A stretch of 64,000 nt of DNA from NCBI GenBank assembly GCA_020848745.1, contig JADLHM010000110.1, positions 12,688 through 76,687 of the forward strand, read 5' to 3'. The position numbers and the translations under genes were made by a program. Origin of the DNA: Deltaproteobacteria bacterium. GTDB taxonomy: Bacteria > Desulfobacterota > Binatia > UTPRO1. Shown here in pieces: positions 23,887 to 56,794 of this stretch (its first letter is position 1; every line of letters starts with the position of its first letter). The notes beneath the pieces are model-generated. The model was not told the origin of the DNA. It searched no databases and worked only from the letters and a program-made list of their open reading frames with translations.

Positions 23887-25128
23887 GTGTGGAGTCTCTG
23901 CGGGGTGACCCGCGTCGACATCCCCGTGTCGCTCGCCGGCCTCGGTGAGCCGGCGGCGACCTCGCATCCCTTCTGGGGCCGCGCTTTCCGGCCCTTCTTC
24001 CTACTTGGCTGCGTCCAGGCCGCCTTTCTCGTGCCGCTCTGGACGGCGATGTGGCGCGGCGCGGTGCCGGCGCCCGCGTGGCTCACGCCACCGTGGTGGC
24101 ACGCGCACGAGATGCTCTTCGGCTTCGTTGCGGCCGCGATCGCGGGCTTCCTGCTCACCGCCGCGCCGGTGTGGACCGGACGCCCGGCGCTCACCGGGGC
24201 GCCGCTCGCCGCGCTCGTGGCGCTCTGGGTCGCGGGACGGGCGGCGATGCTCGCCGCCGGCGTCCTGCCGCCCGCGCTCGTCGCGCTCGTCGACGGCGCA
24301 TTCCTCCCGGCCGTGGCGCTCGTCGTCACGCGTACGGTGTGGCGTACCGGTCAGGTCCGCAACTACGGCGTCGTCGCCATGGTGATGGTCCTCGCGGCGA
24401 CGAACCTCGCTGTGCACGCGCAGGCGCTCGATCTCGCCGACGCCTCCGCCGCCCGCGGTCTGCGGTGCGCGCTCGACCTCGTGACGGCGCTCGTGGTGGT
24501 GATCGGCGGACGGATCACGCCGGCCTTCACGGCCAACGCTTTCTTGCGGGCGGGCATCGACGCGGAGGTGCGGGGGTGGCGTTGGCTGGATCGCCTCGCC
24601 GTCGCGACGGCCGTGCTCGTGGTGGTCGGCGACCTCGTGGCGCCGGGGACCGCCGCGAGCGGAGTCCTCGCGGGCGCGGCGGCGCTCGCGGTCGGCGCGC
24701 GGCTCGCTGGATGGCGGAGCCTGCGCACCTGGCGCGATCCGCTCGTATGGTCGTTGCATGCCGGCATGGCGTGGGTCGTCGTCGGCTACCTGCTGGTCGC
24801 GGCCAGCAACCTCGGGGCCGCGATTGCACCGAGCGCCGGCGTCCATGCCCTCACGGCGGGCGCGATGGGCGCGATGATCATGGCGGTCGTGACGCGTGTG
24901 AGCCTTGGCCACACGGGTCGTCCGCTCGTTCTGCCACGCGGCGCGGCGGCCGCGTACGGCCTCGTCCACGCCGGCGCCCTTCTGCGCGTGTGCGCGGCGA
25001 TCCATGCCGGCGCGGCCGGGACCCTCCTCGTCGCAGGGGGACTCGTCTGGGCGGCGGCGTTCGCCGTTTTCGTCTGGGTGTATGCTCCGATCCTCGTGAG
25101 CGCCCGCGCCGACGGGAAGCCGGGGTGA
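23887..25128 (+). CDS. NnrS family protein (NO-response haem/copper membrane protein)
   Basis: 413-aa polytopic protein with the NnrS signature WWHAHEMLFGF near the N-terminus and 12 TM-like segments. Confidence 0.75.
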   Translation: MWSLCGVTRVDIPVSLAGLGEPAATSHPFWGRAFRPFFLLGCVQAAFLVPLWTAMWRGAVPAPAWLTPPWWHAHEMLFGFVAAAIAGFLLTAAPVWTGRPALTGAPLAALVALWVAGRAAMLAAGVLPPALVALVDGAFLPAVALVVTRTVWRTGQVRNYGVVAMVMVLAATNLAVHAQALDLADASAARGLRCALDLVTALVVVIGGRITPAFTANAFLRAGIDAEVRGWRWLDRLAVATAVLVVVGDLVAPGTAASGVLAGAAALAVGARLAGWRSLRTWRDPLVWSLHAGMAWVVVGYLLVAASNLGAAIAPSAGVHALTAGAMGAMIMAVVTRVSLGHTGRPLVLPRGAAAAYGLVHAGALLRVCAAIHAGAAGTLLVAGGLVWAAAFAVFVWVYAPILVSARADGKPG

Positions 25129-25186
25129 TGTCGGTCACGTGGCGCGACCAGCGCCCCTTGCGGCGAATCCACGTGCGTGACGTCAT

Positions 25187-26221
25187 GTGCGGATGAAGAT
25201 GCCGAATCGTCCCCGCTACTGGAGCGTGATCGGTCCGATGCCCGCGGCGGAGCTGACCGCCACGTGCCGGATGCTCGAGGCCGTCGGCGTCGACGGCCTC
25301 TTCGCGCCGCAGGTGCTCGGGCCGCCGTGGATACCGCTCGCAGCGGCGGCGGCGGTGACCGAGCGCGTCCAGCTCGCGAGCGGCATCGCGATCGCGGCGG
25401 CGCGGAGCCCCTTCGAGACGGCGATGGCCGCACTCGACCTCGATCGCCTGAGCGGCGGACGGTTCGTGCTCGGGCTCGGGACGAGCGTGCTCGCGTGGAC
25501 GCGCGGCATCTTCGGGTCGCCGGTCGAAAAGCAGGTCTCGCACCTCAGGGAGACGGTGGCCGCGATCCGGCACGTCATTGCCGGTGCCCACGCGGGGCTG
25601 GCGCCGTTCGAGGGCGAGTTCTATCGCGCGGACTTCCGGGAGCTCCAGCCGACGCCGCCTCCCGTGCGTTCCACCATCCCGATCTGGATCGCGGCTCTGC
25701 GCGAGAAGATGGTGGCCCTCGCGGCCGAGGTCGGCGATGGCCTCATCGGCCACCCGATGTGGTCCATCGAGTGGACGCTCGAGCGCATGCGGCCCGCCTT
25801 CGAAGCGGCGCTCACGCACGCCGGCCGGCGGCGCGCCGACGTCGAGGTGAACCTCTGGTACTGGGCTGCCCCCGGACCGGACGAGCGCCAGGCGCTCGAC
25901 GATGCGCGGCCGACGATGGCGTTCTACGGCGGCGTCGCCCAGTACGAGCCGTTCTTCGCGGCCCACGGCTTCGCCGAGGTCGCGCAGAAGCTCCAGGCCG
26001 CCGTGCAGCGCGGCGACTACCGGAGCGCCGCGGCGCTCGTGCCCGACGACATGGTCCGGACCTTCGTCGCGGTCGGCGAGCGCGATGCGATCCGCGCGCG
26101 CTTCGCGGCGGTCGCGGAGTTTGCCGACTCCCTCTGCGTCGTGCCGCCGGTGTACGCGCTCGCGCCGGAACGGGCGATGGCGTACGGCGCCGGGATCGCC
26201 GAGGCGCTCTATGGGTCCTGA
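25187..26221 (+). CDS. LLM class (luciferase-like) flavin/F420-dependent oxidoreductase
   Basis: 344-aa TIM-barrel LLM family features (GVDGLFAPQ, LGLGTS, IPIWIAALREKM). Confidence 0.75.
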   Translation: MRMKMPNRPRYWSVIGPMPAAELTATCRMLEAVGVDGLFAPQVLGPPWIPLAAAAAVTERVQLASGIAIAAARSPFETAMAALDLDRLSGGRFVLGLGTSVLAWTRGIFGSPVEKQVSHLRETVAAIRHVIAGAHAGLAPFEGEFYRADFRELQPTPPPVRSTIPIWIAALREKMVALAAEVGDGLIGHPMWSIEWTLERMRPAFEAALTHAGRRRADVEVNLWYWAAPGPDERQALDDARPTMAFYGGVAQYEPFFAAHGFAEVAQKLQAAVQRGDYRSAAALVPDDMVRTFVAVGERDAIRARFAAVAEFADSLCVVPPVYALAPERAMAYGAGIAEALYGS

Positions 26222-27149
26222 TACGCCGGCGCCGGCCGATCTCATGCGCGCACGGCTCGGCGGATGCTATCGCGACGACGCCCCGTATCCCGCCGCCGTC
26301 GTGAACGTCACCAATCGGTGCAACCTCGCGTGCACGCACTGCTTCGTGTTCCGTGCCGGCAATCCCAACGAGGCGCCGACGTCGGTGCGCGACGAGATGA
26401 GCGACACGGCCGTCCTCGACACGCTCGTGCGCCTGCGCGACCGCCACGGGATCCGCACCATGCTCTGGATGGGGGGCGAGCCGCTCCTGCGCCGTGCGCT
26501 CCTGACGGCGGGCCTGCGACTCTTCGCGCGCAACGTCATCACCACCAATGGCACCGTGCCGCTCGTGGATTTCGGACCGGACGTCCTCTACGTCGTGAGC
26601 CTCGACGGCCCCGAGGACCTGAACGACGCGCTCCGCGGCGCCGGGACGTATCGGCGCGTCATGCGGACGCTCGACCGTCTGCCGTCCGGCTTCGCGACGC
26701 CGGTGCAGGTGCAGTGCGTGGTGACGCGCCGGAACGAGCATCGGCTCGAGGAGCTCGTGGCTGCGCTGCGTCGCACCTGCGTCCGCTGGCTCACCTTCAG
26801 TTGGTACGTCCCGCGACGCGACGACGCGAGCGGCGACGCGTGGCCGGACAACGCCGCCCGCGCCTGGTCGGTCGGCGAGGTGCAGCGGCTGAAACGCCTC
26901 CATCCCGGCTTCATCCGCAATTCCGCCGAGAGCCTTGCGCTCATGCTGCCGCCCGCGTGCGAGCGGGTGACGACCGCCTGTCCGGCGCAGGCGCACGTGC
27001 TGCCGCTCTGGATGGAGGGCGATCACTTCGCGACGCCGTACTGCTGCTACGGCAACGACGTCGACTGCGCCCGGTGCGGCGCATGGGTGGTCTTCAGCCT
27101 GGCCGCGAAACGCGCGGCCGCGGAGCGGGGCGGGGACGCGCCGGCGTGA
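26211..27149 (+). CDS. radical SAM protein with C-terminal Cys-rich (twitch/SPASM-like) region
   Basis: ATG at 26211 overlaps the LLM gene by 11 nt. CNLACTHC radical SAM CxxxCxxC motif. C-terminal cysteines (ACPAQ...PYCCYGNDVDCARCG). Embedded in artefactual ORF 25902..27149. Confidence 0.75.
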   Translation: MGPDTPAPADLMRARLGGCYRDDAPYPAAVVNVTNRCNLACTHCFVFRAGNPNEAPTSVRDEMSDTAVLDTLVRLRDRHGIRTMLWMGGEPLLRRALLTAGLRLFARNVITTNGTVPLVDFGPDVLYVVSLDGPEDLNDALRGAGTYRRVMRTLDRLPSGFATPVQVQCVVTRRNEHRLEELVAALRRTCVRWLTFSWYVPRRDDASGDAWPDNAARAWSVGEVQRLKRLHPGFIRNSAESLALMLPPACERVTTACPAQAHVLPLWMEGDHFATPYCCYGNDVDCARCGAWVVFSLAAKRAAAERGGDAPA

Positions 27150-27808: not shown

Positions 27809-28095
27809 CGGCCCCGCCGCTCTTCACGATCGCGAGCCTTCAGGAGCCGGACCGTTCCTGCGGGAAGACGGCTTGCCGCCTCGGCCCGGCGGATGCCGTC
27901 CCCGCCCCGGCCGAACTCCCGGAAAACACTCCGAGAATGGGAATCGACGACCTTCGTCATGATGATCGCTGACGTTGGTCATAGGTGCATCACTAGCCCG
28001 TGCGTAGAGATGCCTCTAAGTATGGAGTCGTCTCTACGATTGTCGATGCCGGGGGCTCCGGGGCCCTGGCGCTCGAATCCATCGGAGGTGTCGCA

Positions 28096-28491
28096 ATGAC
28101 CGGAGGTGCCGCAATGACGTTGAGCCGGAACGCGGAAGCGGTGGCGCCGCCAGAGGCGCGCCCGACGGTGGTCGCCACCAAGCGCCTGTCCAGCAAGGAG
28201 GAGCCGCCCGGATCGGGCGAGGCCACCGGCTCCCGCGGCGCCATGCTGATGCGGTCGACCGGACTCGGGAAGGCGGAGCTCGTCGCCGAGATCGTCGGGC
28301 TGAGCCGCCAGGGTGACTACCTGATCATGGAGCTGCAGACCACCAAGCCGGTGCGATGGAAGATCCGCGGCGGTCTGAGCCACAAGGACCTGCGCATGCT
28401 CCTGCGGGCGATGATGAAGCGCTCCGTGATGTCGTTCCTGTTCAACGTCCGTGCGTGGTTCCGGGAGCCGGTACATCCAGGGGATTTCTGA
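28096..28491 (+). CDS. hypothetical small protein, translationally coupled to the first flavoenzyme of the array
   Basis: Two tandem copies of GGAGGTG-N5-ATG (ATGs at about 28096 and 28114) in frame with ORF 28000..28491. Stop overlaps the next gene's ATG as TGATG. No family recognised. Confidence 0.4.
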   Translation: MTGGAAMTLSRNAEAVAPPEARPTVVATKRLSSKEEPPGSGEATGSRGAMLMRSTGLGKAELVAEIVGLSRQGDYLIMELQTTKPVRWKIRGGLSHKDLRMLLRAMMKRSVMSFLFNVRAWFREPVHPGDF

Positions 28492-30209
28492 TGGCGGACC
28501 TGTCGTTCGACGCCGTCATCGTCGGGGGCGGTAACAAGGCGCTTCTGCTCGCGCTCTATCTCATCAAGTACGGCGGCATGAGCGTCGGCATCTTCGAACG
28601 GCGGCACGAGATCGGCGGTTGCTTGGCTACCGAGGAGCTCGCGGCTCCCGGCTTTCGCGGGAACACGCACGCGAACATCATCCTCCCCTGGTATTACGCG
28701 CCGATCTGGCGCGATTTCCCCCAGTTCTGGGACTACGGCGCGCAATGGGAGCAGCATACGTGCAGCGACGGATTCGTCTTCAAGGACAAGCAAAACTGCC
28801 TCGCGATCTACAGCGAGAAGCACGATCCCACGTGGGAGCGCACGGCGCAGGAAATCGCCCGCTTCTCGCAGCGGGACGCTGACACCTGGCGAAAGCTCCA
28901 CGCGATCTCCGAATCCGAGGAGTACAAGCGCGTGCTCATCGACTCGCTGTTCTTGCCGGCGGAAGACCGGCTCACCGGCGCCGTCGAGGAACGCAAGATG
29001 ATGATGTTCCCTGGGCTGATGGCCGCCGGCCTGGTTCCCGATTCTTTGTCCATGAAGGCGAGCGGCCTGCGCGCGGCCCAGGAATGGTTCGACAGCCCGG
29101 AGCTGCAGTCCTGCGTGCTGCGCTTCGCCGTGTCGTCCGTCATCGACATCAACGAGCCGGGCTTGGGCATGTACACGATGGGGATGGCGCTGACCCTGCC
29201 GACGATCGGCTTCAATCGCGGCGGCACGCATCAGATCGCGCACGCTGCCCATCAGATCCTCGTCCAGAGCGGATGCCGGTTCTTCACCAACGTGGAGGTG
29301 CAGCGCGCCGTCATCGAGAACGGGACGGTGACCGGCATCCGGCTCGCCGACGGCACCGAGGTCGCCGCCCGCAAGCTCGTGGTGAGCACGCTCTCGCCGC
29401 GGCAGCTGATCTTCGAGCTGATCGGCGAACAGCATTGCGACGCCACGTTGAAGAAGCGCGTCGACCTCCTGGATGACACGTTCGGCTGCCTGATGTGGTA
29501 CAGCTTCGCGGTTCACGAGGCGCCGTCGTACGAGGCCGAGCGCTTCAACCCCGACATCCACGAATGCCAGTGGCTGGGAATGCAGCCGGATCCCGACCCC
29601 ATGCACATCGCGCGCGAGTGCATGTACCAGAAGCTCGGGAAGTTCCCTCCGCTGGAGGATTATGCGCCCACGGTCGGCTGTCACAGCCTCGTGGATCCGG
29701 CCTTCGCGCCGCCCGGGAAGCACGTGGTGTTCAACGAGCAGCTCGGTCCGCCCGCCGGCGCGCACACCGAGAAGGAGTGGTTGGAGATCAAGAAGCGCTA
29801 TGCGGACGAGCTGATCGGCCTCTGGCAGGACTACGCACCGAACATGACCTGGGACAACGTGATCGGCGTCGACACGAACACGTCGTATGACCACAGGCGA
29901 ATGCGCAACCTGGGCATCAACGGAACGATGGCCGGCATCGATCGGTCCCCGTTCCAGATCGAAGAGAACCGTCCGACGCCGGAGCTCGCCAACCATCGCA
30001 CGCCCATCAAGAACCTCTACGCCACGGGCGGCGCGTGGCACGTCGGATCCAATGCCGGCTCGACCGAGGCGTACAACTGCTACCGCGTCATCGCCAAGGA
30101 CCTCGGGCTCGGGAAGCCGTGGGAGGAACCCGGCAAGGAAGAGCCCGATTCGCTCGTCGCGCAGCTCGCGATCGTGAAGCAGCGGGTACGGGAGGCGTGC
30201 CGCCGATAG
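28491..30209 (+). CDS. phytoene desaturase (CrtI/CrtD)-family FAD-dependent oxidoreductase, paralog A
   Basis: 572 aa from MADLSFDAVIVGGGNKALLLALYL (GxGxxG FAD fold, EIGGC). C-terminal NLYATGG FAD-binding motif. Real start inside ORF 28356..30209. Confidence 0.8.
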   Translation: MADLSFDAVIVGGGNKALLLALYLIKYGGMSVGIFERRHEIGGCLATEELAAPGFRGNTHANIILPWYYAPIWRDFPQFWDYGAQWEQHTCSDGFVFKDKQNCLAIYSEKHDPTWERTAQEIARFSQRDADTWRKLHAISESEEYKRVLIDSLFLPAEDRLTGAVEERKMMMFPGLMAAGLVPDSLSMKASGLRAAQEWFDSPELQSCVLRFAVSSVIDINEPGLGMYTMGMALTLPTIGFNRGGTHQIAHAAHQILVQSGCRFFTNVEVQRAVIENGTVTGIRLADGTEVAARKLVVSTLSPRQLIFELIGEQHCDATLKKRVDLLDDTFGCLMWYSFAVHEAPSYEAERFNPDIHECQWLGMQPDPDPMHIARECMYQKLGKFPPLEDYAPTVGCHSLVDPAFAPPGKHVVFNEQLGPPAGAHTEKEWLEIKKRYADELIGLWQDYAPNMTWDNVIGVDTNTSYDHRRMRNLGINGTMAGIDRSPFQIEENRPTPELANHRTPIKNLYATGGAWHVGSNAGSTEAYNCYRVIAKDLGLGKPWEEPGKEEPDSLVAQLAIVKQRVREACRR

Positions 30210-30235
30210 GCGTCGCCGCGGCGAAGGTCCGAGAC

Positions 30236-31861
30236 ATGACGCAGACCTACGACGTCATCATCATCGGCAGCGGACCCAATGGGCTCGCGATCGCCGCCTA
30301 TCTCAGCAAGGCCGGGCAGAAGGTTCTGTTGCTGGAGAAGCGCCACGAAGCCGGCGGCGGTCTCGCGACCGAACAGGTCACGATCCCCGACTTCTACCAC
30401 AACACGCACGCCGTCTACATGATGATGGTGGACTACGCGCCGGTGTACCGGGACTTCGGCTTCGAGGAGCGCGGCGTCCGACACATCTATCCGGAGCTGC
30501 AGGTGGCGCTGTCGCTCGCCGACGGCCGCGCGCTCGCGATCTACCGCGATCTCGAGCGGACCTGCGCGTCGATCGCCGCGTTCTCGAAGCGCGACGCGGA
30601 CAGCTACCGCGACATGCAGCGCGAGCACGGCGAGCTAATGGAGAACATCCTTGCGCCGCAGACCTACGTGCCGATGGATGCCGCGCCGCTGATGGCCGCC
30701 AAAGCGGAGCTGACGGAGCTCGGCCGCGTGCTGTCCGCGTACACCGACAAGACTCCCGAGGAGATCGTCTGCGAGCGGTTCGAGGACGAGCACGTCCGGA
30801 CCCTGATGCTCTACATGGCGTGTCATTGGGGTCTCGACTACGCGCAATCCGGCGTCAGCTACATGGTGCCGATCTATCTCGATCGGATGCGCCACTACCG
30901 CCTCACGGCGGGCGGGTCGCACCGGGCGGCGAGCGTGCTGCTCAGGGCGACCTTCGAGCACGGGGGACAGATCCGGACCACCGCTCAGATCCGGCGCATC
31001 ATCGTGGAGAACGGCGCCGCCACGGGCGTAGAGCTGGAGGATGGCACGCAGTTCCTCGCGGCCAAGGCGGTGGTGAGCACCATCGACCCCCATCAGACGT
31101 TCTTGAGGTACGTCGGGGAGGACGCGCTCGATCGCGAGTTCGTCGAGATGATCAATCTGTGGCAGTGGGAAAAGTGGAGCCTCTGCGTTCAGCATCTGGC
31201 GCTGGCCGAGCCGCCGCGATTCAAGGCCGCCGAGTCCTGCCCCGATCTCGATCGCGCCTTCATCCACGTCCTCGGCTACGAGAGCCTCGCCGATCTGAAG
31301 GGACACTGGGATGCCATGAGCGCGGGAACCCTGCCGGCCCAGGCGGGATTCAACTGCTGCTTCCCGAGCGTTCACGATCCGTATCAGGCGCCGCCCGGTC
31401 GCGCGTCGGGGTTGCTCTCGCAGATGGCGCCGTTCGAGCTCTGCGACGGCGGCTCGGAACGCTGGCTGAGCCACCGGTTTCGCGAGGAGGCGGCCGAGCG
31501 GCAGATCGGCGTCCTGCAGCGCTACGCCCCCAACGTCACCAGGGACAAGGTACTCTGGACCTACCTCACGACGCCCGCGGACATCGAGAACAAGTTCGCG
31601 AACATGGTGCGCGGGAGCTACAAGCAGGGGGCCTATCACCCGCTGCAGATGGGCTACCTCAGGCCGAATCAGGAGTGCTCGCAGTATCGCACGCCCGTGG
31701 AGAACCTCTATCTCGGCGGTGCGAGCGTCGCTCCCGGGGGCATGGTGCTCTTCGGGCCCGGCTACAACTGTGCCAACGCCATCGCCGAGGATTTCGGCAT
31801 CCAGAAATGGTGGACGGAGCCGGAGTACGTCACGGCGGCAAGAGAGAACGGGTACGTCTAA
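30236..31861 (+). CDS. phytoene desaturase-family FAD-dependent oxidoreductase, paralog B
   Basis: 541 aa from MTQTYDVIIIGSGPNGLAIAAYL...EAGGGLATE. Shares HNTHAVYMMMVDYAPVYRDFG and YRTPVENLY blocks with paralog D. Confidence 0.8.
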   Translation: MTQTYDVIIIGSGPNGLAIAAYLSKAGQKVLLLEKRHEAGGGLATEQVTIPDFYHNTHAVYMMMVDYAPVYRDFGFEERGVRHIYPELQVALSLADGRALAIYRDLERTCASIAAFSKRDADSYRDMQREHGELMENILAPQTYVPMDAAPLMAAKAELTELGRVLSAYTDKTPEEIVCERFEDEHVRTLMLYMACHWGLDYAQSGVSYMVPIYLDRMRHYRLTAGGSHRAASVLLRATFEHGGQIRTTAQIRRIIVENGAATGVELEDGTQFLAAKAVVSTIDPHQTFLRYVGEDALDREFVEMINLWQWEKWSLCVQHLALAEPPRFKAAESCPDLDRAFIHVLGYESLADLKGHWDAMSAGTLPAQAGFNCCFPSVHDPYQAPPGRASGLLSQMAPFELCDGGSERWLSHRFREEAAERQIGVLQRYAPNVTRDKVLWTYLTTPADIENKFANMVRGSYKQGAYHPLQMGYLRPNQECSQYRTPVENLYLGGASVAPGGMVLFGPGYNCANAIAEDFGIQKWWTEPEYVTAARENGYV

Positions 31862-31874
31862 TGCAGGAGCGTGT

Positions 31875-33596
31875 ATGAGCAAGGACGAGCGGTTCGACAT
31901 CGTCATCATCGGCGCCGGTCCCAACGGGATGGCGACGGCCGCCTATCTCGCCAAGTGCGGCCTCAGCGTGTGCGTGCTCGAGGAACGCACGGAATGCGGC
32001 GGGGCCTGCGAAACGCAGGAGCCGATCCCCGGCGTGCGCATCTATCCGCACGCGGTGCTGATGTACGCGTCGCCGGCGCCGGGATTCGATCAGCTGGAGC
32101 TGCACAAGTACGGCTTCCGCATGACCTGGTGGCCCGGATACGGCGCCAACGAAGATACCGCCGCGCTGGCATGCACCGACGGGTGGCGGCCGATTTCCGC
32201 CCAGGACAAGATGGGATGGGCGAAGATCGGCGGACTCCTCGGCTCACCGCCGTTCACGCGGGAGCTGATGCGCGCCACTTTCTGGTGTCCGCCGCATCCT
32301 CGCGGGGTCGAGGTCACGGACGACAACGTGCCGTACATGCAGGTGTACAAGCAGCACCAGCCCGACATGTACACGCACGAGCTCCGGGAGATGACGATGC
32401 TCGATCTCCTCGACGAGCACTGCGAGACCGAGCACTTCAAGGCCGCCATGGCCTTCGCGGCGTGGGCGTCCGGAGCCGCGGGCCACTGGGAAGGCGTCGC
32501 GATTCCGGCGGCGCTGTGCGTGCAACTCCTCACGATGCCGAACACCGGGCAGAACAGCATCCCGCGGGGCGGCCTGCACGGCTATTTCCACGCCATCCAT
32601 CGCGCCGCCGTGCACAAGGGGGCGGTCGTCCGGACGTGTTGTCCGGTCGAGGAGATCATCATCGAGGACGGGCGGGCCGTCGGCGTGCGGCTGCGCGAGA
32701 CCGCGGCGTGGGGCGGACGAACGATCCGCGCCAACAAGGCCGTGATCGCGGCGATCGACGTGCACCAGGCCTTCCTCAAGATGATCGGCCCACGGCACCT
32801 GGACCCCGGGTTCATCCAGAAGATCCGGGACATCAGCCTGAAGAACCAGACCCTCTACGTGTCCGTCTTCCACACCAAGACGCAGCTGCGATTGAAGCCG
32901 ACGTGGGCCCGGGACGAACGCGTGACGGGACCCAACAAACAGCCGTTCCTCGGCATCTACCCCTGCGACTCGCGCGAGATCTACTACGAGAACGTCGCCG
33001 ACGTGGACGGCCGCAAGGGACAACCGACGGTACCTCCGGAGCGTGCGATGTGGTTCCAGGCGCCGCCGCAGAACTTCGATCCGACCGACTGCCAGGCGAA
33101 CTACCCGCCCTCACGCGGCTACATTTCGCAATCGTACGAGATGGCGGTCACGTCACCCGACTACCATCAAGAAGGGGAAGACGCGCCGGACAAGTACAAG
33201 GCCGAGATGGATGCGTACATGCGGAAGTCCTACGGCCAGATGCTGGACGGCCTCGAGGACGACAACGTCATCCACCATTGGAGTGCCACCGGTCGCGACG
33301 TGGAGTTCCGTAACTCCGGCATCATCGGCGGTACGTGGTGCGGCAGTCGCCACGACGAGGACCAGCTGTGGACGAATCGACCGATCCCCGAGTTGGCGCG
33401 CTACCGGACGCCGATCGAGGGGCTCTATCACGCGCATCAGACCTCGGGGCACCCCGGCGGGCTCTGCCTCATGGCCATTCCCTACAACCTGATGCACATC
33501 CTCATCGAGGACGGCATCGCCGAGCCTGGTGACTGGTGGTACGCGTCGCCCTGGTACATTCCGGAGCAGGGCAAGATTTCCGCGCGCCGCGGCTGA
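31875..33596 (+). CDS. phytoene desaturase-family FAD-dependent oxidoreductase, paralog C
   Basis: 573 aa from MSKDERFDIVIIGAGPNGMATAAYL with AGGAGC RBS. C-terminal YRTPIEGLY. Most divergent of the A-D group. Confidence 0.8.
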   Translation: MSKDERFDIVIIGAGPNGMATAAYLAKCGLSVCVLEERTECGGACETQEPIPGVRIYPHAVLMYASPAPGFDQLELHKYGFRMTWWPGYGANEDTAALACTDGWRPISAQDKMGWAKIGGLLGSPPFTRELMRATFWCPPHPRGVEVTDDNVPYMQVYKQHQPDMYTHELREMTMLDLLDEHCETEHFKAAMAFAAWASGAAGHWEGVAIPAALCVQLLTMPNTGQNSIPRGGLHGYFHAIHRAAVHKGAVVRTCCPVEEIIIEDGRAVGVRLRETAAWGGRTIRANKAVIAAIDVHQAFLKMIGPRHLDPGFIQKIRDISLKNQTLYVSVFHTKTQLRLKPTWARDERVTGPNKQPFLGIYPCDSREIYYENVADVDGRKGQPTVPPERAMWFQAPPQNFDPTDCQANYPPSRGYISQSYEMAVTSPDYHQEGEDAPDKYKAEMDAYMRKSYGQMLDGLEDDNVIHHWSATGRDVEFRNSGIIGGTWCGSRHDEDQLWTNRPIPELARYRTPIEGLYHAHQTSGHPGGLCLMAIPYNLMHILIEDGIAEPGDWWYASPWYIPEQGKISARRG

Positions 33597-33620
33597 CGCT
33601 CGAGAAGGACGAGGCCGACG

Positions 33621-35303
33621 ATGCCAAATTTCAAGTACACCTCCGAGTTCACCTTCGACCCGAGCAATCCCTTCGGGCACATGCAGGAAGAGTTTCCGCG
33701 GGAGAGCGAGTTCGACGTCGTAATCATCGGCGCCGGTCCCAACGGTCTCATCGCCGGCGCCTACCTCGCCCGGGCGGGCCTGAGCGTCGCCGTCTGCGAG
33801 CGTCGCTTCGAGGCGGGTGGCGGTCTGGCCACCGAGGAGAACCTCTACCCCTGCTACTCCTCCAACCCGCACGTGCTCTACCACATGATGGTGGACTACA
33901 TGCCGGCGATCCGGGACTTCGAGCTCGAAGCGCCCGCGGTGACGTGGATCAAGCCCAATCGCCAGACGGGGATGCTGTTCGAAGACGGCTCCTCCGTGCT
34001 CCTGGCCCGCATGACCCAGGACACCAAGGATTCGATCAGCAAGTATTCCTTCAAGGACGCCGGCACCTTCGGCCGGGTGATTCGCGATTGGCGGCGGATC
34101 GTCGACGACATCATCGCGCCCGCCACCTACATCCCGCCCATGGCGCCGATCGAGATCACCATGGCCATGCAACGCACCAAGGTCGGGCAGCAGATGCTGG
34201 AGCTCGGGGAGCTGAGCCCGTTGCAGCTCATCACGGAGACCTTCGAGCACGACAAGGTCCGTGCCCTGATGCTGTACGCGACCTGCATGTGGGGACTCGA
34301 CCCGCGCGAGACCGGCCTCGGCTTCATGGTTCCGCTCATGCTCGATCGCGCCATGAACAAGTGTTACTGCTACGGCGGCTCCCACAAGTTCGGGAGCGCG
34401 CTGGCGCGACAGGTCGTAAAGTACGGCGGCGTGATCCTCGACGCCGCCACCGTCGACCGGATCATCGTCGAGAACGGCCGCGCGGTCGGCGTGCACATCG
34501 TGCACGAGGATCGCGTGCTGCGAGCCAAGGCGGTGATGTCCACGCTGGACCCGCATACGACGTTCCTCGACATGGTCGGCGAGGCGGCGCTGCCGACATC
34601 GCTCCGGGACGCGGTGAAGGGGTGGGCGTGGGACAAGTGGAGCTTCAACACCCTCCACATCGCGGCCGACGAGGCGCCCAAGTACGTCACCGACGATCCG
34701 TGGATCAACGAGGCGTTCGCCACCGTCGTCGGCATCGAGGGCGTCGAAAGCCTGCTCACCCACTGGGACAACGTCACGCAGGGCAGGCTCGACCTGAACA
34801 ACTTCGGCGGCCACTCGACCTGCGAGAGCCTGTTCGATCCCACGCTGAGCGACCGTCCGGGAAAATTCGTCTCGATGTTCCAGATCCATGCGCCCTACGG
34901 GCTCGAGGGCGGCTGGGTGAATCGTCGCGACGAGATCAAGGCGGCCATGCTCGCCAAGTGGCAGAAGGCGGCGCCCAATCTCGCCGGCACGATCATCAGC
35001 ACGGCGATGGAGGACCCCGAGGAAATCGAGATCCGCTTTCCGAACATGCGGCGCGGGTCGATCAAGCACGGCGACTATCGGCCCTTGCAGATGGGGTGCT
35101 ACCGGCCCAATCAAGAGTGCTCGAGCACCGCCACGCCGATCGAAGGCCTCTACGTTTGCGGGGTCTCGACCTATCCCGGAGGCCTCGTCCTCGGTGGTCC
35201 GGGGTATCTCGGTGCCAACCGTGTGGCGGAGGATCTCGGCGTCCCGAAGTGGTGGAAGCCGACCCCGGTCATGGAACGGTACATCAAGACGTACCTCGAA
35301 TGA
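33621..35303 (+). CDS. phytoene desaturase-family FAD-dependent oxidoreductase, paralog D
   Basis: 560 aa. FDVVIIGAGPNGLIAGAYL...EAGGGLATEE. HVLYHMMVDYMPAIRDFE. C-terminal ATPIEGLYVCG. Confidence 0.8.
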   Translation: MPNFKYTSEFTFDPSNPFGHMQEEFPRESEFDVVIIGAGPNGLIAGAYLARAGLSVAVCERRFEAGGGLATEENLYPCYSSNPHVLYHMMVDYMPAIRDFELEAPAVTWIKPNRQTGMLFEDGSSVLLARMTQDTKDSISKYSFKDAGTFGRVIRDWRRIVDDIIAPATYIPPMAPIEITMAMQRTKVGQQMLELGELSPLQLITETFEHDKVRALMLYATCMWGLDPRETGLGFMVPLMLDRAMNKCYCYGGSHKFGSALARQVVKYGGVILDAATVDRIIVENGRAVGVHIVHEDRVLRAKAVMSTLDPHTTFLDMVGEAALPTSLRDAVKGWAWDKWSFNTLHIAADEAPKYVTDDPWINEAFATVVGIEGVESLLTHWDNVTQGRLDLNNFGGHSTCESLFDPTLSDRPGKFVSMFQIHAPYGLEGGWVNRRDEIKAAMLAKWQKAAPNLAGTIISTAMEDPEEIEIRFPNMRRGSIKHGDYRPLQMGCYRPNQECSSTATPIEGLYVCGVSTYPGGLVLGGPGYLGANRVAEDLGVPKWWKPTPVMERYIKTYLE

Positions 35304-35743
35304 TGGATTCCACGGAGCGGACATCCCTTGCGGCGCAATTCGAGCGCCACGCGGACGAAGAGGGGAAGATCCTGGCGGAGTATCGCGTCCTCGCCGAGAA
35401 GCTCGGAAGCGGCGCCGCGGGGAACCTCGTGAGCCACATCTTGACCGAAGAGGAGCTCCATCACCTCCTCTTGCGGACCCTGGCGACGTGGCTGCGTGCG
35501 GCCCCCGCGGAGCACGCGCGCGCGATTCCACCGGAGGCCGATCGTGCCGAGTTGCTCCGCCTGACGAAGCTCCTCCGCAAGCACGAGCTCGAGACCATCG
35601 AGGCGTGCCGCGACACCCAGGCGCGATTGGCTGGTGCCGGCGACGACGGCGCAATCGTCGGCATCTTGCTGGAGGCCATGACCATGGATAGCGAGAAGCA
35701 CCATCGGTTGCTCGGCGCCGTGGAGCGGATGCTGACGAGCTGA
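35303..35743 (+). CDS. small ferritin-like four-helix-bundle protein with duplicated E..EExHH motifs (putative diiron protein)
   Basis: 146 aa from MDSTERT. ATG overlaps the paralog D stop (TGATG). Two repeats: AEYRVLAEKL...TEEELHH and ETIEACRD...DSEKHH. C-terminal part of artefactual ORF 33536..35743. Confidence 0.55.
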   Translation: MDSTERTSLAAQFERHADEEGKILAEYRVLAEKLGSGAAGNLVSHILTEEELHHLLLRTLATWLRAAPAEHARAIPPEADRAELLRLTKLLRKHELETIEACRDTQARLAGAGDDGAIVGILLEAMTMDSEKHHRLLGAVERMLTS

Positions 35744-35755
35744 GGAGATCCGCCA

Positions 35756-37237
35756 ATGGATGCACGGCACTACGACGCGATCGTGATCGGGAGCGGCCCC
35801 GGTGGCCTTTCGTGTGCGACGCTCCTCCAGAAGCGAGGCATCGCCACCCTGTTGGTCGAGAAGAACGGCTTCCTCGGCGGCAAGATGGTGAGCGTCAAGA
35901 AGGACGGCTACGCCTACGACCTCTTTCCTCACGGGCAGGTCCCCATGCGCCAGCCCGCCTTCGAGTCGATCTTCGTAGAGCTCGGTGTCGGTGACGAGTT
36001 CCGGCCGGCGCTGCAGCCCGACGACACGCGGGACGTCATCAAGATCTGCTACCGCCGCCGGGACTGGAAGGACTACAAGCTCGCCGCGCAGTCGCAGGCG
36101 ATGACCGACGCCACCCCGTTCTTTCGGCTGTGGGAGATCGACGAAGAGGCCCAGCAAAAGGTCGTCGCGATCATGGCCGAGATCGCGACGATGCCCGACG
36201 AGCAGGTCGATACGCTCGACGGCGTCAGCATGCACGAGTTCCTGGCGCGCCGCGACACGCCGGAGGCGCTCTACAGCTACATGGCGTTTCACGCCAACGC
36301 GTCGCTTGCCGAGCCGATCGATCTCGTGGCGGCATCGGAGCAGATTCGCATCCTCAAGCAGATCATGCTGCAGGGAGGAGGCGGCCAATACAAAGGCGGC
36401 TTCGGCTTGCTCACCGACGTCATGGCGCGCGAGTTCGAAAAGAACGGCGGTGTCATCGTCCGCAGCGCCAAGGTCGAGAAGATCATCGTCGAGGACGGCG
36501 CCGTCACCGGCGTGACGACGACGAAGGGGACGTTCGCGGCACGGGTCGTGGTGAGCAGCGCCGGCATCCAGCCGACGGTCCTGAAGCTGGTCGACGCGCA
36601 GCACTTCGATCGCAGCTACCTGAACTACATCAAGGGACTGGCTCCCGGCTGGGGATTCACCAGCATCCGCTACTTCCTGAACAAGCCCGTCATGGACGTA
36701 CCCATGTACGTCGCCTACTCGGACGACAGTTGGTGGAACATGGAGCGCTTCCGGCGCGTCAAGGAGGGTCGGATTCCCGACGAGGTGATCCTCTTCATGT
36801 GCAACCACTCTTTCTACGACGAAGAGGCGGCGCCGCCCGGCAAGCAGGTCCTGGTTTCCGGGACCATCTGCTCACCCAATCCCGAAGCCGAGGAGATCGC
36901 GGGATTGTGGAAGCGCATGGACGAGCAGATGGTGAAGTTCTTTCCGGAGATCTGGAACGCGATCGAACGCAAGGAGTACGCCGGGCCGCGCGACATCAGC
37001 AAGATGACCCGCGACGGCGTGCTCCCCGGTCAGGGCGGCGAGTGCGTCGGCCTCGGGCAGATCGTCGGCCAGTGCGGCAAGATGAAGCCCGACCCGGCCG
37101 CACCCATTCGCGGCCTCTACTACGCGGGAGCCGATGCCGGTGGTGCCGGTATGGGCACGCATCAGGCGGCCTGTTCGGGGATCGAGGTGGCGCGGTTGGT
37201 CGGACACTTTCTCAACAAGCTCCACAAGACCCAGTAA
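35756..37237 (+). CDS. phytoene desaturase-family FAD-dependent oxidoreductase, paralog F
   Basis: 493 aa. MDARHYDAIVIGSGPGGLSCATLL...FLGGK. C-terminal GLGQIVGQCG...GLYYAGADAGG shared with paralog G. Confidence 0.8.
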   Translation: MDARHYDAIVIGSGPGGLSCATLLQKRGIATLLVEKNGFLGGKMVSVKKDGYAYDLFPHGQVPMRQPAFESIFVELGVGDEFRPALQPDDTRDVIKICYRRRDWKDYKLAAQSQAMTDATPFFRLWEIDEEAQQKVVAIMAEIATMPDEQVDTLDGVSMHEFLARRDTPEALYSYMAFHANASLAEPIDLVAASEQIRILKQIMLQGGGGQYKGGFGLLTDVMAREFEKNGGVIVRSAKVEKIIVEDGAVTGVTTTKGTFAARVVVSSAGIQPTVLKLVDAQHFDRSYLNYIKGLAPGWGFTSIRYFLNKPVMDVPMYVAYSDDSWWNMERFRRVKEGRIPDEVILFMCNHSFYDEEAAPPGKQVLVSGTICSPNPEAEEIAGLWKRMDEQMVKFFPEIWNAIERKEYAGPRDISKMTRDGVLPGQGGECVGLGQIVGQCGKMKPDPAAPIRGLYYAGADAGGAGMGTHQAACSGIEVARLVGHFLNKLHKTQ

Positions 37238-37271
37238 TCCCGTTCGGATTGCGAACAGAGCGAGGTGTGAG

Positions 37272-38744
37272 ATGGCAGAGACATCGTACGACGTGATCGT
37301 GATCGGAGCGGGCTTCGGCGGCAGTGCGTGCGCCGGTCTGCTGGCAAAGCGCGGGCTCCGGGTCCTCCTCGTCGAGAAGAACGCCAGGGCCGGCGGCAAG
37401 GCGATGAGCCTCAGCAAGCACGGCTTCACCTACACCGCGTGGGTCGTCATCGGCGCCCCGGTGATCGGCAACCTCTACGAGGCCGTAGCGAAGGAGCTCG
37501 GCGTGGAGGATCTCGTCCAACTGGTCACGCCCGGCGCTCCCGCGAGCCTCTACAAAACCTCGTCGGGCGCGTACACGCGGGTGCCCGACATGCCCGTCGG
37601 ACAGACCGACCCGATGCAGATCTTCGACTGGCTCGAGGTCGCGCCCGCCGATCGGGATGCGGCCCTGATGTTCTTCGCCGGACTGACGATGATGCCGCCC
37701 GAGGAGATCGCGAAACTCCACGGCGTCAGCTTCCAGGACTGGATCGAACGTCAGCACATTCCGCGTTCGCTCTACGCGTTCCTGGTGAGCAATTGCTGCG
37801 ACGGCATGTTCATGGTGCCGGTCGACCAACTGGATGCGGCGGAGGCCATCGCGAGCCTGCAGGACATGTTTCTCCGGCACGGAGGCATGTTCTGTCGAGG
37901 CGGCTTCGGCCGTGTCGCCGAGGCGTATTGCGAGGCGGTGCGCCGCTTCGGCGGCACCGTGCTGATGAAGACCAAGACCGAACGCATCCTCGTGGAGGAC
38001 GGCGCGGTCGCCGGGGTCGTCACCAGCGCCGGGACGTTCCGCGCCCCGATCGTCATCAGCAACGCCGGCCTGCAGCCGACGGTCCTGAGATTGCTCGGCG
38101 AGCGAGACTGTCCGCCCGAATACCGGGAATACGTCGAGCGTCTGGTCCCCTCGTGGTCGCTGCTCGGGTATCGCTATTTCCTGCGCCGACCGGTGATCGA
38201 TGCCGCGTTCGGCGTGGTGTTCTCGGACACCAGCCCGTGGACTCTCGATCGGCTCGAGAAGGCGCATGCCGGCCAGGCCTCACGTGAAGGCGTCGTCTAC
38301 TTCGAGGTTCCATCGAACTACGATCCGGAAGCGGCTCCCGCCGGCAAGCAGATGGTGCTGACGGGCTCCTTCTGCCCGCCGAGTCCGCAGATGACGCGCG
38401 CGGAGATCGAGGCCTGGGCCCAGGCCGGGGAGGACGTGATCTTCAAGGCGTTCCCCGCGCTGGAAGACGCCATCGAGGAGAAGGAGCTCTACACGCCGAA
38501 GGACGTCTCCAACCTCACGCGCGAGTCCGCGATCCATGGCCACGGCGGCGAGACCATCGGCCTCGGGCAGATCGTCGGCCAGTGCGGGCCGAGCAAGCCG
38601 TCCATCCAGGCTCCGGTTCGCGGCCTGTTCGTCGTCGGCTGCGACGCCGGTGGAAGTGGCGTCGGGACGCAGCAGGCGATCGCCTCGGGGAGGAACGTCG
38701 CTGAGGCCGTGTTCCGCCACCATCACGCGTCGCGGGCCGCGTGA
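37272..38744 (+). CDS. phytoene desaturase-family FAD-dependent oxidoreductase, paralog G
   Basis: 490 aa from MAETSYDVIVIGAGFGGSACAGLL (GAGGTG RBS). C-terminal GLGQIVGQCG...GLFVVGCDAGG. Start inside ORF 37134..38744. Confidence 0.8.
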   Translation: MAETSYDVIVIGAGFGGSACAGLLAKRGLRVLLVEKNARAGGKAMSLSKHGFTYTAWVVIGAPVIGNLYEAVAKELGVEDLVQLVTPGAPASLYKTSSGAYTRVPDMPVGQTDPMQIFDWLEVAPADRDAALMFFAGLTMMPPEEIAKLHGVSFQDWIERQHIPRSLYAFLVSNCCDGMFMVPVDQLDAAEAIASLQDMFLRHGGMFCRGGFGRVAEAYCEAVRRFGGTVLMKTKTERILVEDGAVAGVVTSAGTFRAPIVISNAGLQPTVLRLLGERDCPPEYREYVERLVPSWSLLGYRYFLRRPVIDAAFGVVFSDTSPWTLDRLEKAHAGQASREGVVYFEVPSNYDPEAAPAGKQMVLTGSFCPPSPQMTRAEIEAWAQAGEDVIFKAFPALEDAIEEKELYTPKDVSNLTRESAIHGHGGETIGLGQIVGQCGPSKPSIQAPVRGLFVVGCDAGGSGVGTQQAIASGRNVAEAVFRHHHASRAA

Positions 38745-38809
38745 TGGTCCGGCGCGATGGTCAATCCACCGGCACGGGCTTCGGGCTCACCGTTCTCCAG
38801 CCGCCACGT

Positions 38810-38847
38810 CAGTGCCGACGCCGCTGGTCACAGCAACGTCGGCACTG
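38810..38847. terminator. bidirectional stem-loop between convergent genes
   Basis: Perfect 11-bp inverted repeat CAGTGCCGACG-N16-CGTCGGCACTG, 65 nt after the paralog G stop, spanning the stop codon of the minus-strand secreted protein gene. Confidence 0.35.
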
Positions 38848-39745
38848 GCGGTAGCAGGTAACCGGTGCCGAAGGTCCCGAGTGCTTCGGCGAAGAAGATC
38901 AGCCGGGTCGCGCGCGGGGGAAAGACGAACGAGGTGAAGCGGATGCTGCCGCTCGAGCCGCCGACGTCGGCGCCCACGACCGTCGCGAGGTTGGTCACCA
39001 CGACGCCCGTCGCCGTGAATCCGGTGTCGGCGATCGTGGATCCGTCGGCGCCCGCGGCGAAGACGTTCCAGTCCGTCGCGCCGACCTGCGCGCGGAGCGG
39101 CAGGCCCGAGACATCCTCGAAGTTCACGAAGATGAGCTGGTCGCCCCCGAGATCCGAGGAGGCGAGATCGTCCGGGTTGTAATAGGCGGAGAGATCGAGG
39201 CCACTCGGGAGGATCGGCCGCAGCGAGACCATCTGGTTGTCGATGGTGGCGCCGAAGTCGGGAAAGCTGTCGTCGGCGTTCACGGCCGAGCGCGCCGCGG
39301 CGGGGGCGCCCCACGCCGAGCCGGTCGCGAGATTCGCGACCGTGAAGTTGCCGGTGAGGGCGGCGCTCACGATGGCCGTCCCGACCTCGTTCACGCCGGT
39401 TGCGAAGGCGGCGCCGGCCTGCGCGGGGAGACCGCTCGCGCGCAGCTCGCCGACGTCGAGCACGCGGAGCCCGAACGCGGGCAGGGTGATCGTGTGGGCG
39501 AACGGCACACCGTCGAAGCCGGGCGCGTAGAAGAGCACCGTGACCGTCAACTCGCCCGGCATGACGTTCCGCACGGTGAGAAACGTGGTGAAGTTCTCTC
39601 GCGCGTCGTAGTAGAAGACCAGCTGGTCGCCCTGGGTATCGGGCCGCTCGAGCGCCGCCGGCGCTGGAGGGATGAATGCTTCGACCTGCGAGGTCCATCC
39701 CAGGAGCCACCACGCCACGAGGGCCAACACCGTCCGTCTCCGCAT
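38828..39745 (-). CDS. secreted hypothetical protein (Gly/Ala/Thr-rich, signal peptide)
   Basis: ORF 38828..39820 trimmed to MRRRTVLALVAWWLLGWTSQVEA (signal peptide) with GGAGG RBS. No family recognised. Confidence 0.5.
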   Translation of the reverse strand: MRRRTVLALVAWWLLGWTSQVEAFIPPAPAALERPDTQGDQLVFYYDARENFTTFLTVRNVMPGELTVTVLFYAPGFDGVPFAHTITLPAFGLRVLDVGELRASGLPAQAGAAFATGVNEVGTAIVSAALTGNFTVANLATGSAWGAPAAARSAVNADDSFPDFGATIDNQMVSLRPILPSGLDLSAYYNPDDLASSDLGGDQLIFVNFEDVSGLPLRAQVGATDWNVFAAGADGSTIADTGFTATGVVVTNLATVVGADVGGSSGSIRFTSFVFPPRATRLIFFAEALGTFGTGYLLPPVPTLL

Positions 39746-40185
39746 ACCGCCTCCTCGCCGATGGAGTGTCCGTGAAGCGCCCCCGCTGCCGTCGCCGGGC
39801 GGCTGCGGACACGCCTTCACGGATCTCGAACAGCCCTAACCGAGCACGTCCCCGGCGTCTAGTGAGATGAGGTCCATCATGCTTCGGGCTGACGTTCTTC
39901 GCGATGGCGGCGATGCTCTTTCGGCTCACCCCGAGTGCGAGTAGAGCCACAAGCCAAACAAGGCCGCGCTCAGGAGCACCAAGGCCTCACAGCAAGCGAT
40001 GAAGACGATGAGGCGCTCCCCCGTCCGGGCCTTCGGTTCGTCCGGATCGAGCAGGAAGCCGCGTTCCGTACGCTCGACTCCGAACCAACGCGACCATCGG
40101 CTTCCCGCCATGCCGCGGTCCTACCCGGAGCCGCCGACGGAATCCGCGGCGCGGACGTCCACGCCGTACGTCGGCGCGAGCCGCT

Positions 40186-40740
40186 TCACCGCTGCGCGGC
40201 GGCCGACGCCTGCAGGCCCGACGCCGGCTCGTAGGCGAGCACCTCGACCAGGAGGACCCGCCGGCGGGTCGTGCCGACGGTCCGGCGATAGCGGACGAGC
40301 CGCCCCGTTTCGGGGTCGAACTCGGCGCGCAGGTCGACCGCCGGCGTGTCGCCGACCGCCTCGATGGTCGTCCAGCGGAGATCGGTCTGTAGCAGGTCGA
40401 AGATCCCCTGGACCGAGTAGTCGTCGCGCTCCCGGTCGGCGCCGCCGACCGGGTGGCCGTCGCGGGTGCGCTTCACGAGGGTGCCGCCCGCCACCTCGAT
40501 CTCCCATACCTCCACCGGAGCGCGTGGCGGCCGCACCCGCACGACCGCGCGATAGGAGCTGGAACCGTGCGCCTGCCAGCGCTGGCGGGCCGCCGCCAGC
40601 GACGCCTCGGTCAACGGCTCCATCGGGGGCGGCCCGAGCAGTGAGCAGCCGGCGAGCAGCAGCAGGACGGCTCCCCATGCCGTCCTTGCCCGCCGGCTGG
40701 TCGTCGCGTGACCAGGGCGTGCCGTGCCTGAGTCGGTCAC
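40186..40740 (-). CDS. hypothetical lipoprotein
   Basis: 184-aa ORF with signal plus LLAGCS lipobox. No family recognised. Confidence 0.45.
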   Translation of the reverse strand: MTDSGTARPGHATTSRRARTAWGAVLLLLAGCSLLGPPPMEPLTEASLAAARQRWQAHGSSSYRAVVRVRPPRAPVEVWEIEVAGGTLVKRTRDGHPVGGADRERDDYSVQGIFDLLQTDLRWTTIEAVGDTPAVDLRAEFDPETGRLVRYRRTVGTTRRRVLLVEVLAYEPASGLQASAAAQR

Positions 40741-40760
40741 GCGAACCTCCTTACTTCACT

Positions 40761-43175: not shown

Positions 43176-43214
43176 GTGATGATCCTCCTCACGTGTGCGT
43201 CACTGTGGCGGGGC

Positions 43215-43667: not shown

Positions 43668-43681
43668 GGGATGGTCTCCTC

Positions 43682-53314: not shown

Positions 53315-56794
<3,480 letters not shown>

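Follow-up and report, generated by a model that had tools for sequence, protein, structure and literature searches.

A conserved Binatia-type operon encoding two putative alpha/beta pairs of covalent-flavin allylic oxidases

The 64-kb stretch of DNA analysed here (the window), from a metagenome-assembled genome (MAG) deposited as 'Deltaproteobacteria bacterium', carries an array of eight plus-strand genes, L-A-B-C-D-E-F-G, at positions 28114–38744. Six of these genes encode large flavoenzymes. We think it reasonably probable that the array is a conserved Binatia-type operon for two heteromeric covalent-flavin allylic oxidases, A+B and C+D, a reading that draws direct support from gene structure, family relationship, histidine conservation, alpha/beta pairing and operon conservation. 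The original prediction had set the six flavoenzymes on an equal footing, as plain flavin adenine dinucleotide (FAD) enzymes with a chemistry not described for their family. [quoted passage not shown]

The genes of the array, all on the plus strand, are:

28114–28491 (+): L, 125 amino acids (aa); small conserved protein, translationally coupled to A
28491–30209 (+): A, 572 aa; alpha-type subunit of putative heteromer 1, predicted covalent flavin at His60
30236–31861 (+): B, 541 aa; beta-type subunit of putative heteromer 1, predicted covalent flavin at His58
31875–33596 (+): C, 573 aa; alpha-type subunit of putative heteromer 2, predicted covalent flavin at His59
33621–35303 (+): D, 560 aa; beta-type subunit of putative heteromer 2, predicted covalent flavin at His84
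35300–35743 (+): E, 147 aa; four-helix protein, probably a rubrerythrin/ferritin-like di-metal protein
35756–37237 (+): F, 493 aa; CrtI-type flavoenzyme without the flavinylation histidine
37272–38744 (+): G, 490 aa; second CrtI-type flavoenzyme

Genes were called from the G+C content of third codon positions (GC3) and homology in a window of ~70% GC, and GC3 in the called frames is 0.83–0.90. Lengths and calls are identical to those of the deposited NCBI proteins MCC6766246–MCC6766253, of which MCC6766246 is L, and the nearest named relatives of the array proteins belong to 'Candidatus Binatia bacterium' MAGs. The L stop and the A start overlap by 1 nt (TGATG), and D and E share the four letters ATGA (-4 nt); the remaining spacers measure 26 nt (A/B), 13 nt (B/C), 24 nt (C/D), 12 nt (E/F) and 34 nt (F/G). 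A promoter and terminator scan of the array yielded neither in numbers above shuffle expectation, and predicted internal terminators were at or below chance. With gaps of only -4 to +34 nt and internal terminators no more frequent than chance, L-A-B-C-D-E-F-G is best read as one operon.

All six large proteins match the Pfam Amino_oxidase and NAD_binding_8 families, and they are strongly diverged. Pairwise protein identity in an all-against-all blastp comparison is 20–41% (B–D 41%, F–G 37.5%, A–B 28%, A–C 26%, C–D 26%), with A–D aligning to F and G only in part, at 20–30%. At the nucleotide level, blastn finds only patches of 25–234 nt at 68–88% identity among the six genes, and the array is therefore no assembly duplication. 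The GxGxxG...GG(G)LATE and RTPI/VExLY motifs are present, the HNTHAVYMMMVDYAPVYRDFG motif occurs in B, GLGQIVGQCG occurs in both F and G, and the C-terminal ends GLYYAGADAGG and GLFVVGCDAGG were confirmed in F/G. In these respects the original prediction was accurate: the six long same-strand reading frames, every quoted motif and the division of a diverged CrtI-superfamily array into sub-groups A–D and F/G were all recovered.

A neighbour-joining tree resolves A-, B-, C- and D-groups, each at 100% bootstrap and each including sequences of other phyla. Delta-24-SD alpha and beta fall into groups of their own (79% and 70%), with F and G as the outgroup (100%). Beta-type genes adjoin an alpha-type gene in seven loci from five MAG groups: Chloroflexota (loci L007 and L015), Thermodesulfobacteriota (L008), Dehalococcoidia (L011), Nitrososphaerales (L009 and L014) and an unclassified bacterium (L012). 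Partners do not mix. A-like genes are always with B-like, C-like with D-like (C-group and D-group genes also adjoin each other in the Dehalococcoidia/Chloroflexota MAGs, L011 and L015) and SD-alpha-like with SD-beta-like. Because this pairing recurs in several phyla and each group has 100% support, A–D are ancient partners rather than local duplicates, and from their sequences A+B and C+D are best read as two alpha/beta heteromer pairs that diversified together. They form two lineages distinct from delta-24-SD, the sole characterised lineage placed in the tree. Recent tandem duplication was considered and rejected, since every paralogue belongs to a separate orthologue group that spans phyla; local tandem duplication, which the original prediction had proposed to test, also conflicts with the presence of 78–92% identical orthologues in the same order in other genomes.

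The Nitrososphaerales pairs are worth a separate remark. These archaeal MAGs carry alpha-beta pairs at 1295–4969 of L009 and 2410–5721 of L014 that lie nearest the delta-24-SD lineage and are 33–39% identical to the SD alpha and beta subunits, an unexpected host group for an anaerobic terpenoid/sterol family.

The delta-24-SD alpha and beta sequences, taken from the supplement of PMC11061730, were compared with A–D directly; CtmAB was compared through published figures and the published motif only. With delta-24-SD beta, B shares 36% identity across 520 residues (E 2e-103) and D 37% over its full length (E 3e-99). This is the level seen between characterised enzymes (34–38%), delta-24-SD beta and CtmB being 38% identical (PMC11061730). 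The alpha subunits are less alike: A and C match delta-24-SD alpha at 27% (E 3e-36) and 26% (E 8e-22), respectively, and delta-24-SD alpha shows 26–29% identity across A, B, C and D.

The delta-24-SD of Sterolibacterium denitrificans is a proposed (alpha-beta)4 enzyme with flavin mononucleotide (FMN) bound covalently to a histidine in each subunit (PMC11061730). In an N-terminal alignment, His57/His58 of delta-24-SD align with His60 of A, His58 of B, His59 of C and His84 of D, and neither F nor G has a histidine in this column. By this analogy A–D probably carry a covalently bound flavin (FMN in delta-24-SD) rather than free FAD. Among the matches listed, cyanobacterial CrtO-like proteins, ~29% identical to B, have a cysteine at the flavinylation column, and in other unpaired relatives cysteine, threonine or phenylalanine replaces the histidine. 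A tblastn search of B against plasmids likewise returned only unpaired relatives, at ~29% identity. The histidine column therefore separates A–D and delta-24-SD from CrtO.

The operon recurs in other genomes and contigs. The related loci, with primes marking additional copies of a gene type, are:

L001, Binatia MAG GCA_044450645: L-A-B-C-D-C'-D'-E-F
L004 / L090, JGI 3300055024: order as in L001, at 78–92% identity; G lies 5.7 kb after F
L089, Binatia MAG GCA_046757585: B-C-D-C'-D'-E-F-G, contiguous
L005, GCA_029261835: A-B-C-D only, with MarR, zinc alcohol dehydrogenase (Zn-ADH) and SDR genes in front
L002 / L003, Logan and JGI contigs: C''-C'-D'-ZnADH-(160 aa)-A-B-F'
L006, L087 and L088, JGI and ENA contigs: A-B alone; in L088 the A gene is split into two calls

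Three Binatia-type loci share the same gene order with orthologues 78–92% identical, and L-A-B-C-D-(C'-D')-E-F-G is repeated in Binatia MAGs. Orthologues keep their places: those of C are 82–92% identical at the same position in L001, L004 and L005, and those of D 79–88%. F orthologues (84–86%) directly follow E in L001 and L004, L089 and L090 have gene-sized counterparts in this place, and in L003 the gene after A-B is a 52% relative. G orthologues are 66–91% identical and in L089 lie directly 3' of F. B orthologues, 70–92% identical, are abundant in metagenomes, and 1420 proteins among the candidates tested match B at E<=1e-10. The number of pairs varies from one (L006, L087 and L088) through two (L005 and the window) to three (L001, L004 and L089) or at least three (L003). 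A-B is the core, to which the Binatia-type version adds further pairs, E, F and G as modules.

Where A-B stands alone (L006, L087 and L088), it adjoins Zn-ADH, TetR, molybdenum (Mo) oxidoreductase, HGD-D or old-yellow-enzyme genes. Genes for Zn-ADH, SDR/3-beta-HSD and old-yellow enzymes lie beside pairs in several relatives; these alcohol dehydrogenase, SDR/3-beta-HSD and ene-reductase neighbours fit the later processing of an allylic alcohol. Our literature search found nothing relevant on this operon in Binatia/Binatota. No paper was found that describes the A/B and C/D lineages, or an operon of 6–8 flavoenzymes with E, F, G and L, and these are uncharacterised; the enzyme family itself is already known.

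One relative has an unusual insertion. Between the F and G orthologues of L090 (4284–9999, contig Ga0556608_0000176) lie genes for a BcrAD_BadFG ATPase, two HGD-D proteins, a CdhC fragment, a CbiA/ParA-like protein and CobW. HGD-D (2-hydroxyacyl-CoA dehydratase-like) genes also flank the A-B pair in L087, a recurrent association with ATP-driven radical or low-potential machinery.

Both small proteins embedded in the array, noted in the original prediction, are real conserved genes; L starts at 28114 rather than 28000, and the Pfam hits behind a di-metal reading of E, all in remote homologues, are marginal. A GGAGG at 28102–28106 lies 7 nt before the L start codon. L is 78% identical to the 124/125-aa products of the genes that immediately precede the A orthologues in L001 and L004, and in L006 the gene after B encodes an 82-aa homologue (55%). 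The last 82 residues of L are kept at 55–78% in relatives, and it always adjoins A or B. No Pfam or NCBIfam model matches L; at E<=10, Pfam gave nothing meaningful for it or for the relatives' other small upstream open reading frames (ORFs), and a single-sequence AF2 model (pLDDT 58) was unusable.

E has four long helices with a conserved Glu/His at each midpoint, in an E...ExxH...E...ExxH-like pattern. It has no Pfam hit itself. Of ten remote homologues reached with a profile, three score just above the Rubrerythrin cut-off and six more fall below it. The best PDB sequence match is weak (a designed di-iron protein, E 0.18), and fold searches were non-specific. From these features E is probably a rubrerythrin/ferritin-like di-metal protein. 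Five of its remote homologues (P0443, P0475, P0487, P0498 and P0508) are C-terminal domains on tandem universal-stress-protein domains or lie beside a hemerythrin domain; these arrangements hint at a redox or stress-sensing role for E's rubrerythrin-like family.

The covalent flavin, the type of reaction, the class of substrate and what E, F, G and L do are inferred from this evidence, as follows. A+B and C+D would be heteromeric (alpha-beta)n flavoenzymes of the CtmAB/delta-24-SD family, with the flavin held covalently on the N-terminal histidines 60, 58, 59 and 84 by analogy with delta-24-SD. CtmAB, the limonene dehydrogenase of Castellaniella defragrans, consists of subunits of 565 and 549 aa with 27% mutual identity and hydroxylates an allylic methyl group using water (PMC4109377), and delta-24-SD carries out an oxygen-independent allylic oxidation of an isoprenoid chain in a denitrifier (PMC11061730). 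Judging by these relatives, the most likely reaction is the oxygen-independent hydroxylation or desaturation of an allylic C-H in an isoprenoid-like substrate. Catalysis by these enzymes would begin with the abstraction of a hydride, or of a hydrogen atom, at an allylic C-H in a substrate of isoprenoid or alicyclic type; water would then be added to give an allylic alcohol (the CtmAB route), or a second hydrogen removed to give a conjugated diene (the delta-24-SD route), in either case without O2. Limonene dehydrogenase requires an acceptor of positive potential (PMC12583861). The electrons from A–D may similarly pass to a positive-potential acceptor, which would fit the adjacent genes for nitric oxide (NO) respiration (qNor, NnrS and Crp/Fnr). 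F and G, as CrtI-type enzymes with non-covalent FAD, could perform further desaturation, isomerisation or saturation of the same carbon skeleton. E may be an electron-transfer or peroxide-protection partner, and L is possibly an assembly factor or small subunit.

Several points weigh against this proposal. Identity between A or C and delta-24-SD alpha is only 26–27%, and the A/B and C/D lineages are without any characterised member. A alone satisfies the full published flavinylation motif, G-F-[LR]-x-[NS]-[TL]-H-A, a consensus derived from four sequences only (PMC11061730): the specified positions agree in 7 of 7 cases for A (GFRGNTHA), 5 of 7 for B (DFYHNTHA), 4 of 7 for C (GVRIYPHA) and 2 of 7 for D (CYSSNPHV). 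A–D are compared with CtmA and CtmB through published figures and the published motif, and the di-metal call for E combines marginal Pfam hits in remote homologues with motif geometry. The window has no ferredoxin/ferredoxin-reductase pair like ctmEF, and genes for an alcohol dehydrogenase, an aldehyde dehydrogenase, a CoA ligase or beta-oxidation are not found nearby in it. The neighbours of the pairs vary among genomes. Finally, the conservation of B (70–92%, in many metagenomes) is equally compatible with a housekeeping biosynthetic role. Since pair neighbours vary and the window lacks nearby downstream catabolic genes, the substrate cannot be read from context; a terpenoid-like or lipid substrate, as first proposed, remains the most plausible.

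A possible but distinctly less probable arrangement is that the enzymes work in parallel, each alpha-beta pair, F and G having its own substrate among terpenes or sterol side chains, so that the operon would be a toolbox to which modules are added and from which they are lost. The pair number, ranging from one to at least three among relatives, suits this idea, as do the occurrence of A-B alone with Zn-ADH and the separate cross-phylum histories of the A/B and C/D lineages. In Sterolibacterium, moreover, related sterol side chains are handled by a set of several isoenzymes (PMC11061730). The fixed A-B-C-D-(C'-D')-E-F-G order and the translational coupling, kept at 78–92% identity in several genomes, argue for a co-functioning unit instead, and E and F are seen only alongside the multi-pair version. 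Parallel isoenzymes are compatible with the family assignment and would differ in pathway logic only. The related suggestion of a paralogue set with graded specificity, made in the original prediction, is a possibility favoured by the same variation in pair number.

Somewhat more doubtful, and offered tentatively, is a stronger form of the allylic-oxidase proposal, in which the operon would be a complete, self-contained O2-independent oxidation line for an abundant isoprenoid (a carotenoid, squalene, a hopanoid, a plant terpene or a sterol side chain, for example). A single carbon skeleton would pass in turn through two or three covalent-flavin alpha-beta enzymes and the two CrtI-type enzymes, with E as dedicated electron acceptor. 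We know of no di-metal protein that serves as electron acceptor in the CtmAB/delta-24-SD family.

An unlikely alternative is a pigment-modification cluster, with A–D as divergent CrtO-type ketolases or hydroxylases and F and G as CrtI/CrtD/CrtISO-type enzymes acting on a carotenoid made by genes elsewhere in the genome. CrtO, too, oxidises an allylic carbon. Its model (NF045689) is the top-scoring NCBIfam model for A–D (112–221 bits), and crtI_fam (TIGR02734) is the top model for F and G. JGI labels the A and C orthologues 'beta-carotene ketolase (CrtO type)' and the G orthologues 'prolycopene isomerase', and high operon conservation would suit housekeeping biosynthesis. The scores nevertheless fall far short. 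Against the CrtO cut-off of 1000 bits, A scores 143, B 221, C 112 and D 183, 5–9 fold too low, and F and G score 49 and 60. Against the crtI_fam cut-off of 238.1 bits, the values are 36 (A), 101 (B), 33 (C), 61 (D), 82 (F) and 110 (G). For the CrtD, CrtISO, CrtID and HpnE equivalogs (cut-offs 283–640 bits), the best of the six proteins reaches 87 bits. All these cut-offs being missed, membership of the six flavoenzymes in these carotenoid families was rejected. Neither outcome that the original prediction had named as refuting it, placement in a known carotenoid clade or nucleotide repeats, was thus obtained. In addition, B and D are nearer to delta-24-SD beta (36–37%) than B is to the cyanobacterial CrtO-like proteins, which have cysteine for the flavinylated histidine, and obligate alpha/beta gene pairing is not known for CrtO. 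Nor is this a carotenoid locus, as the original prediction had recognised. Phytoene synthase, polyprenyl synthase and lycopene cyclase Pfam domains (SQS_PSY, polyprenyl_synt), the products of crtB/crtE/crtY, were absent from the ~48 candidate ORFs scanned across the window, where the only Lycopene_cycl matches fall below threshold and lie in the N-terminal Rossmann regions of B, C, D and F; no crtB/crtE/crtY gene occurs among the Pfam-annotated flank genes of related loci either. Solved structures include no close relative: B is closest to CrtI (4dgk, E 4e-11), and the best relatives of G are 3ka7, an uncharacterised archaeal oxidoreductase, and 4rep, a gamma-carotene desaturase (both E ~1e-11).

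The cyanobacterial CrtO-like genes at L016, L018, L020 and L030 have a conserved cysteine (GFKFNLCAIDH) at the flavin-histidine position. From this sequence feature, a cysteinyl-flavin link in CrtO-type ketolases is a possibility.

Long spurious ORFs are common in all six frames of a window with ~70% GC, but the chance that the array is an artefact, whether of assembly (a repeat collapsed or duplicated) or of annotation (false ORFs in GC-rich DNA), is negligible, given the absence of nucleotide repeats among the paralogues, the GC3 of the called frames, the identical deposited calls and 66–92% identical orthologues on independent NCBI, JGI, ENA and Logan contigs.

Around the array, the window contains the following genes:

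23842–25128 (+): NnrS
25181–26221 (+): F420-dependent luciferase-like oxidoreductase shortly before the array; TIGR03617-like, scoring 208 bits (cut-off 278)
~26230–27149 (+): radical SAM protein; best NCBIfam models are SPASM/maturase-type, all scoring far below cut-offs
40761–43199 (-): quinol-type nitric oxide reductase (qNor; NorB cytochrome-c-like domain and COX1)
44998–47628 (-): glycyl-radical enzyme of the PFL2-3/glycerol-dehydratase group (625 bits against a cut-off of 678, no equivalog match)
~47408–48300 (-): glycyl-radical activating enzyme, adjoining the glycyl-radical enzyme
53294–58798 (+): type II DMSO-reductase-family Mo enzyme in three genes, for alpha, 4Fe-4S beta and gamma subunits, the last carrying an 'ethylbenzene dehydrogenase' heme-b domain
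59675–61374 (+): two TetR regulators
61353–62201 (-): Crp/Fnr regulator

The array is flanked by qNor and NnrS, and with the glycyl-radical enzyme and Crp/Fnr also present, the NO/anaerobic island described in the original prediction is confirmed. All three subunits of the Mo enzyme miss the curated cut-offs by far (alpha, 283 bits against 985; ebdA, 135 against 2000). It could be an oxyanion reductase, or else an anaerobic hydroxylase of hydrocarbons or sterols, comparable to the Mo enzymes that act together with delta-24-SD. By its best hits, the glycyl-radical enzyme falls outside the fumarate-adding group (benzyl- and alkylsuccinate synthases). A functional link between the array and the Mo enzyme (15 kb away) or the glycyl-radical enzyme (6 kb away, opposite strand) was considered and set aside, as nothing beyond proximity points to it. 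The luciferase-like and radical SAM genes show no conserved association with the array in relatives. GC content dips to 0.65–0.69 over 28000–44000 (the array and the qNor region), against 0.70–0.755 on either side, which could indicate horizontal acquisition or simply protein composition.

In the literature searched, only limonene dehydrogenase and delta-24-SD have been studied biochemically in this family, and both carry out difficult O2-free C-H oxidations on terpenoid skeletons. The array adds at least two more alpha-beta lineages of ancient origin to this family, A/B and C/D, which are common across metagenomes of soil and sediment and occur in several bacterial phyla. Binatia-type bacteria combine them in a conserved operon of 6–8 flavoenzymes with a candidate di-metal redox partner. 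E is a testable candidate for the family's missing electron acceptor, and the locus supplies expression targets. Database labels such as 'beta-carotene ketolase' or 'prolycopene isomerase' are corrected; they would ascribe carotenoid functions to the hosts in error. If the operon were a complete oxidation line, the widespread uncultured Binatia would gain a previously unrecognised role in anaerobic terpenoid turnover.

Comparison with known systems places the parts of the operon at different distances from their relatives. F and G share with the CrtI/CrtD/CrtISO family CrtI-like N- and C-terminal FAD motifs and a full-length Amino_oxidase match (8.7e-21 for F, 1.4e-14 for G); they differ in scoring below the crtI_fam cut-off and far below all equivalog cut-offs, and in lacking carotenoid synthesis genes nearby. 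E shares the four-helix layout and mid-helix Glu/His residues of rubrerythrin/ferritin-like di-iron proteins (PF02915, PF00210), its remote homologues having Rubrerythrin/Ferritin matches near the Pfam threshold. A–D resemble the CrtO ketolase, their top curated model, in superfamily, in a length of ~540–570 aa and in the allylic oxidation predicted for them, and differ from it in the residue at the flavinylation column, in their alpha/beta gene pairing and in an identity of just ~29% to B.

The closest likeness is to the two characterised heteromers. Subunits of 572/573 aa (A/C) and 541/560 aa (B/D) compare with 565/549 aa in CtmA/CtmB and 573/512 aa in delta-24-SD alpha/beta, and alpha-beta identity is 26–28% here against 27% in both CtmAB and delta-24-SD. 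CtmAB is likewise a heterodimer of COG1233-type flavoproteins, with the flavinylation motif in both CtmA (CDM25290) and CtmB (CDM25289); its host is a nitrate reducer, and it needs a high-potential acceptor. The ctm cluster includes a 2Fe-2S ferredoxin and a ferredoxin reductase (ctmEF) that have no counterparts in the array, and it lacks genes of the E, F, G and L types. With delta-24-SD the array shares an adjacent gene pair, a beta subunit 36–37% identical to B and D, and an FMN-binding histidine aligned with the histidines of A–D. It differs from delta-24-SD in that A/B and C/D form well-supported lineages of their own, and in uniting two pairs (three in relatives), two CrtI-type enzymes, a putative di-metal protein and a small coupled protein in a single operon.

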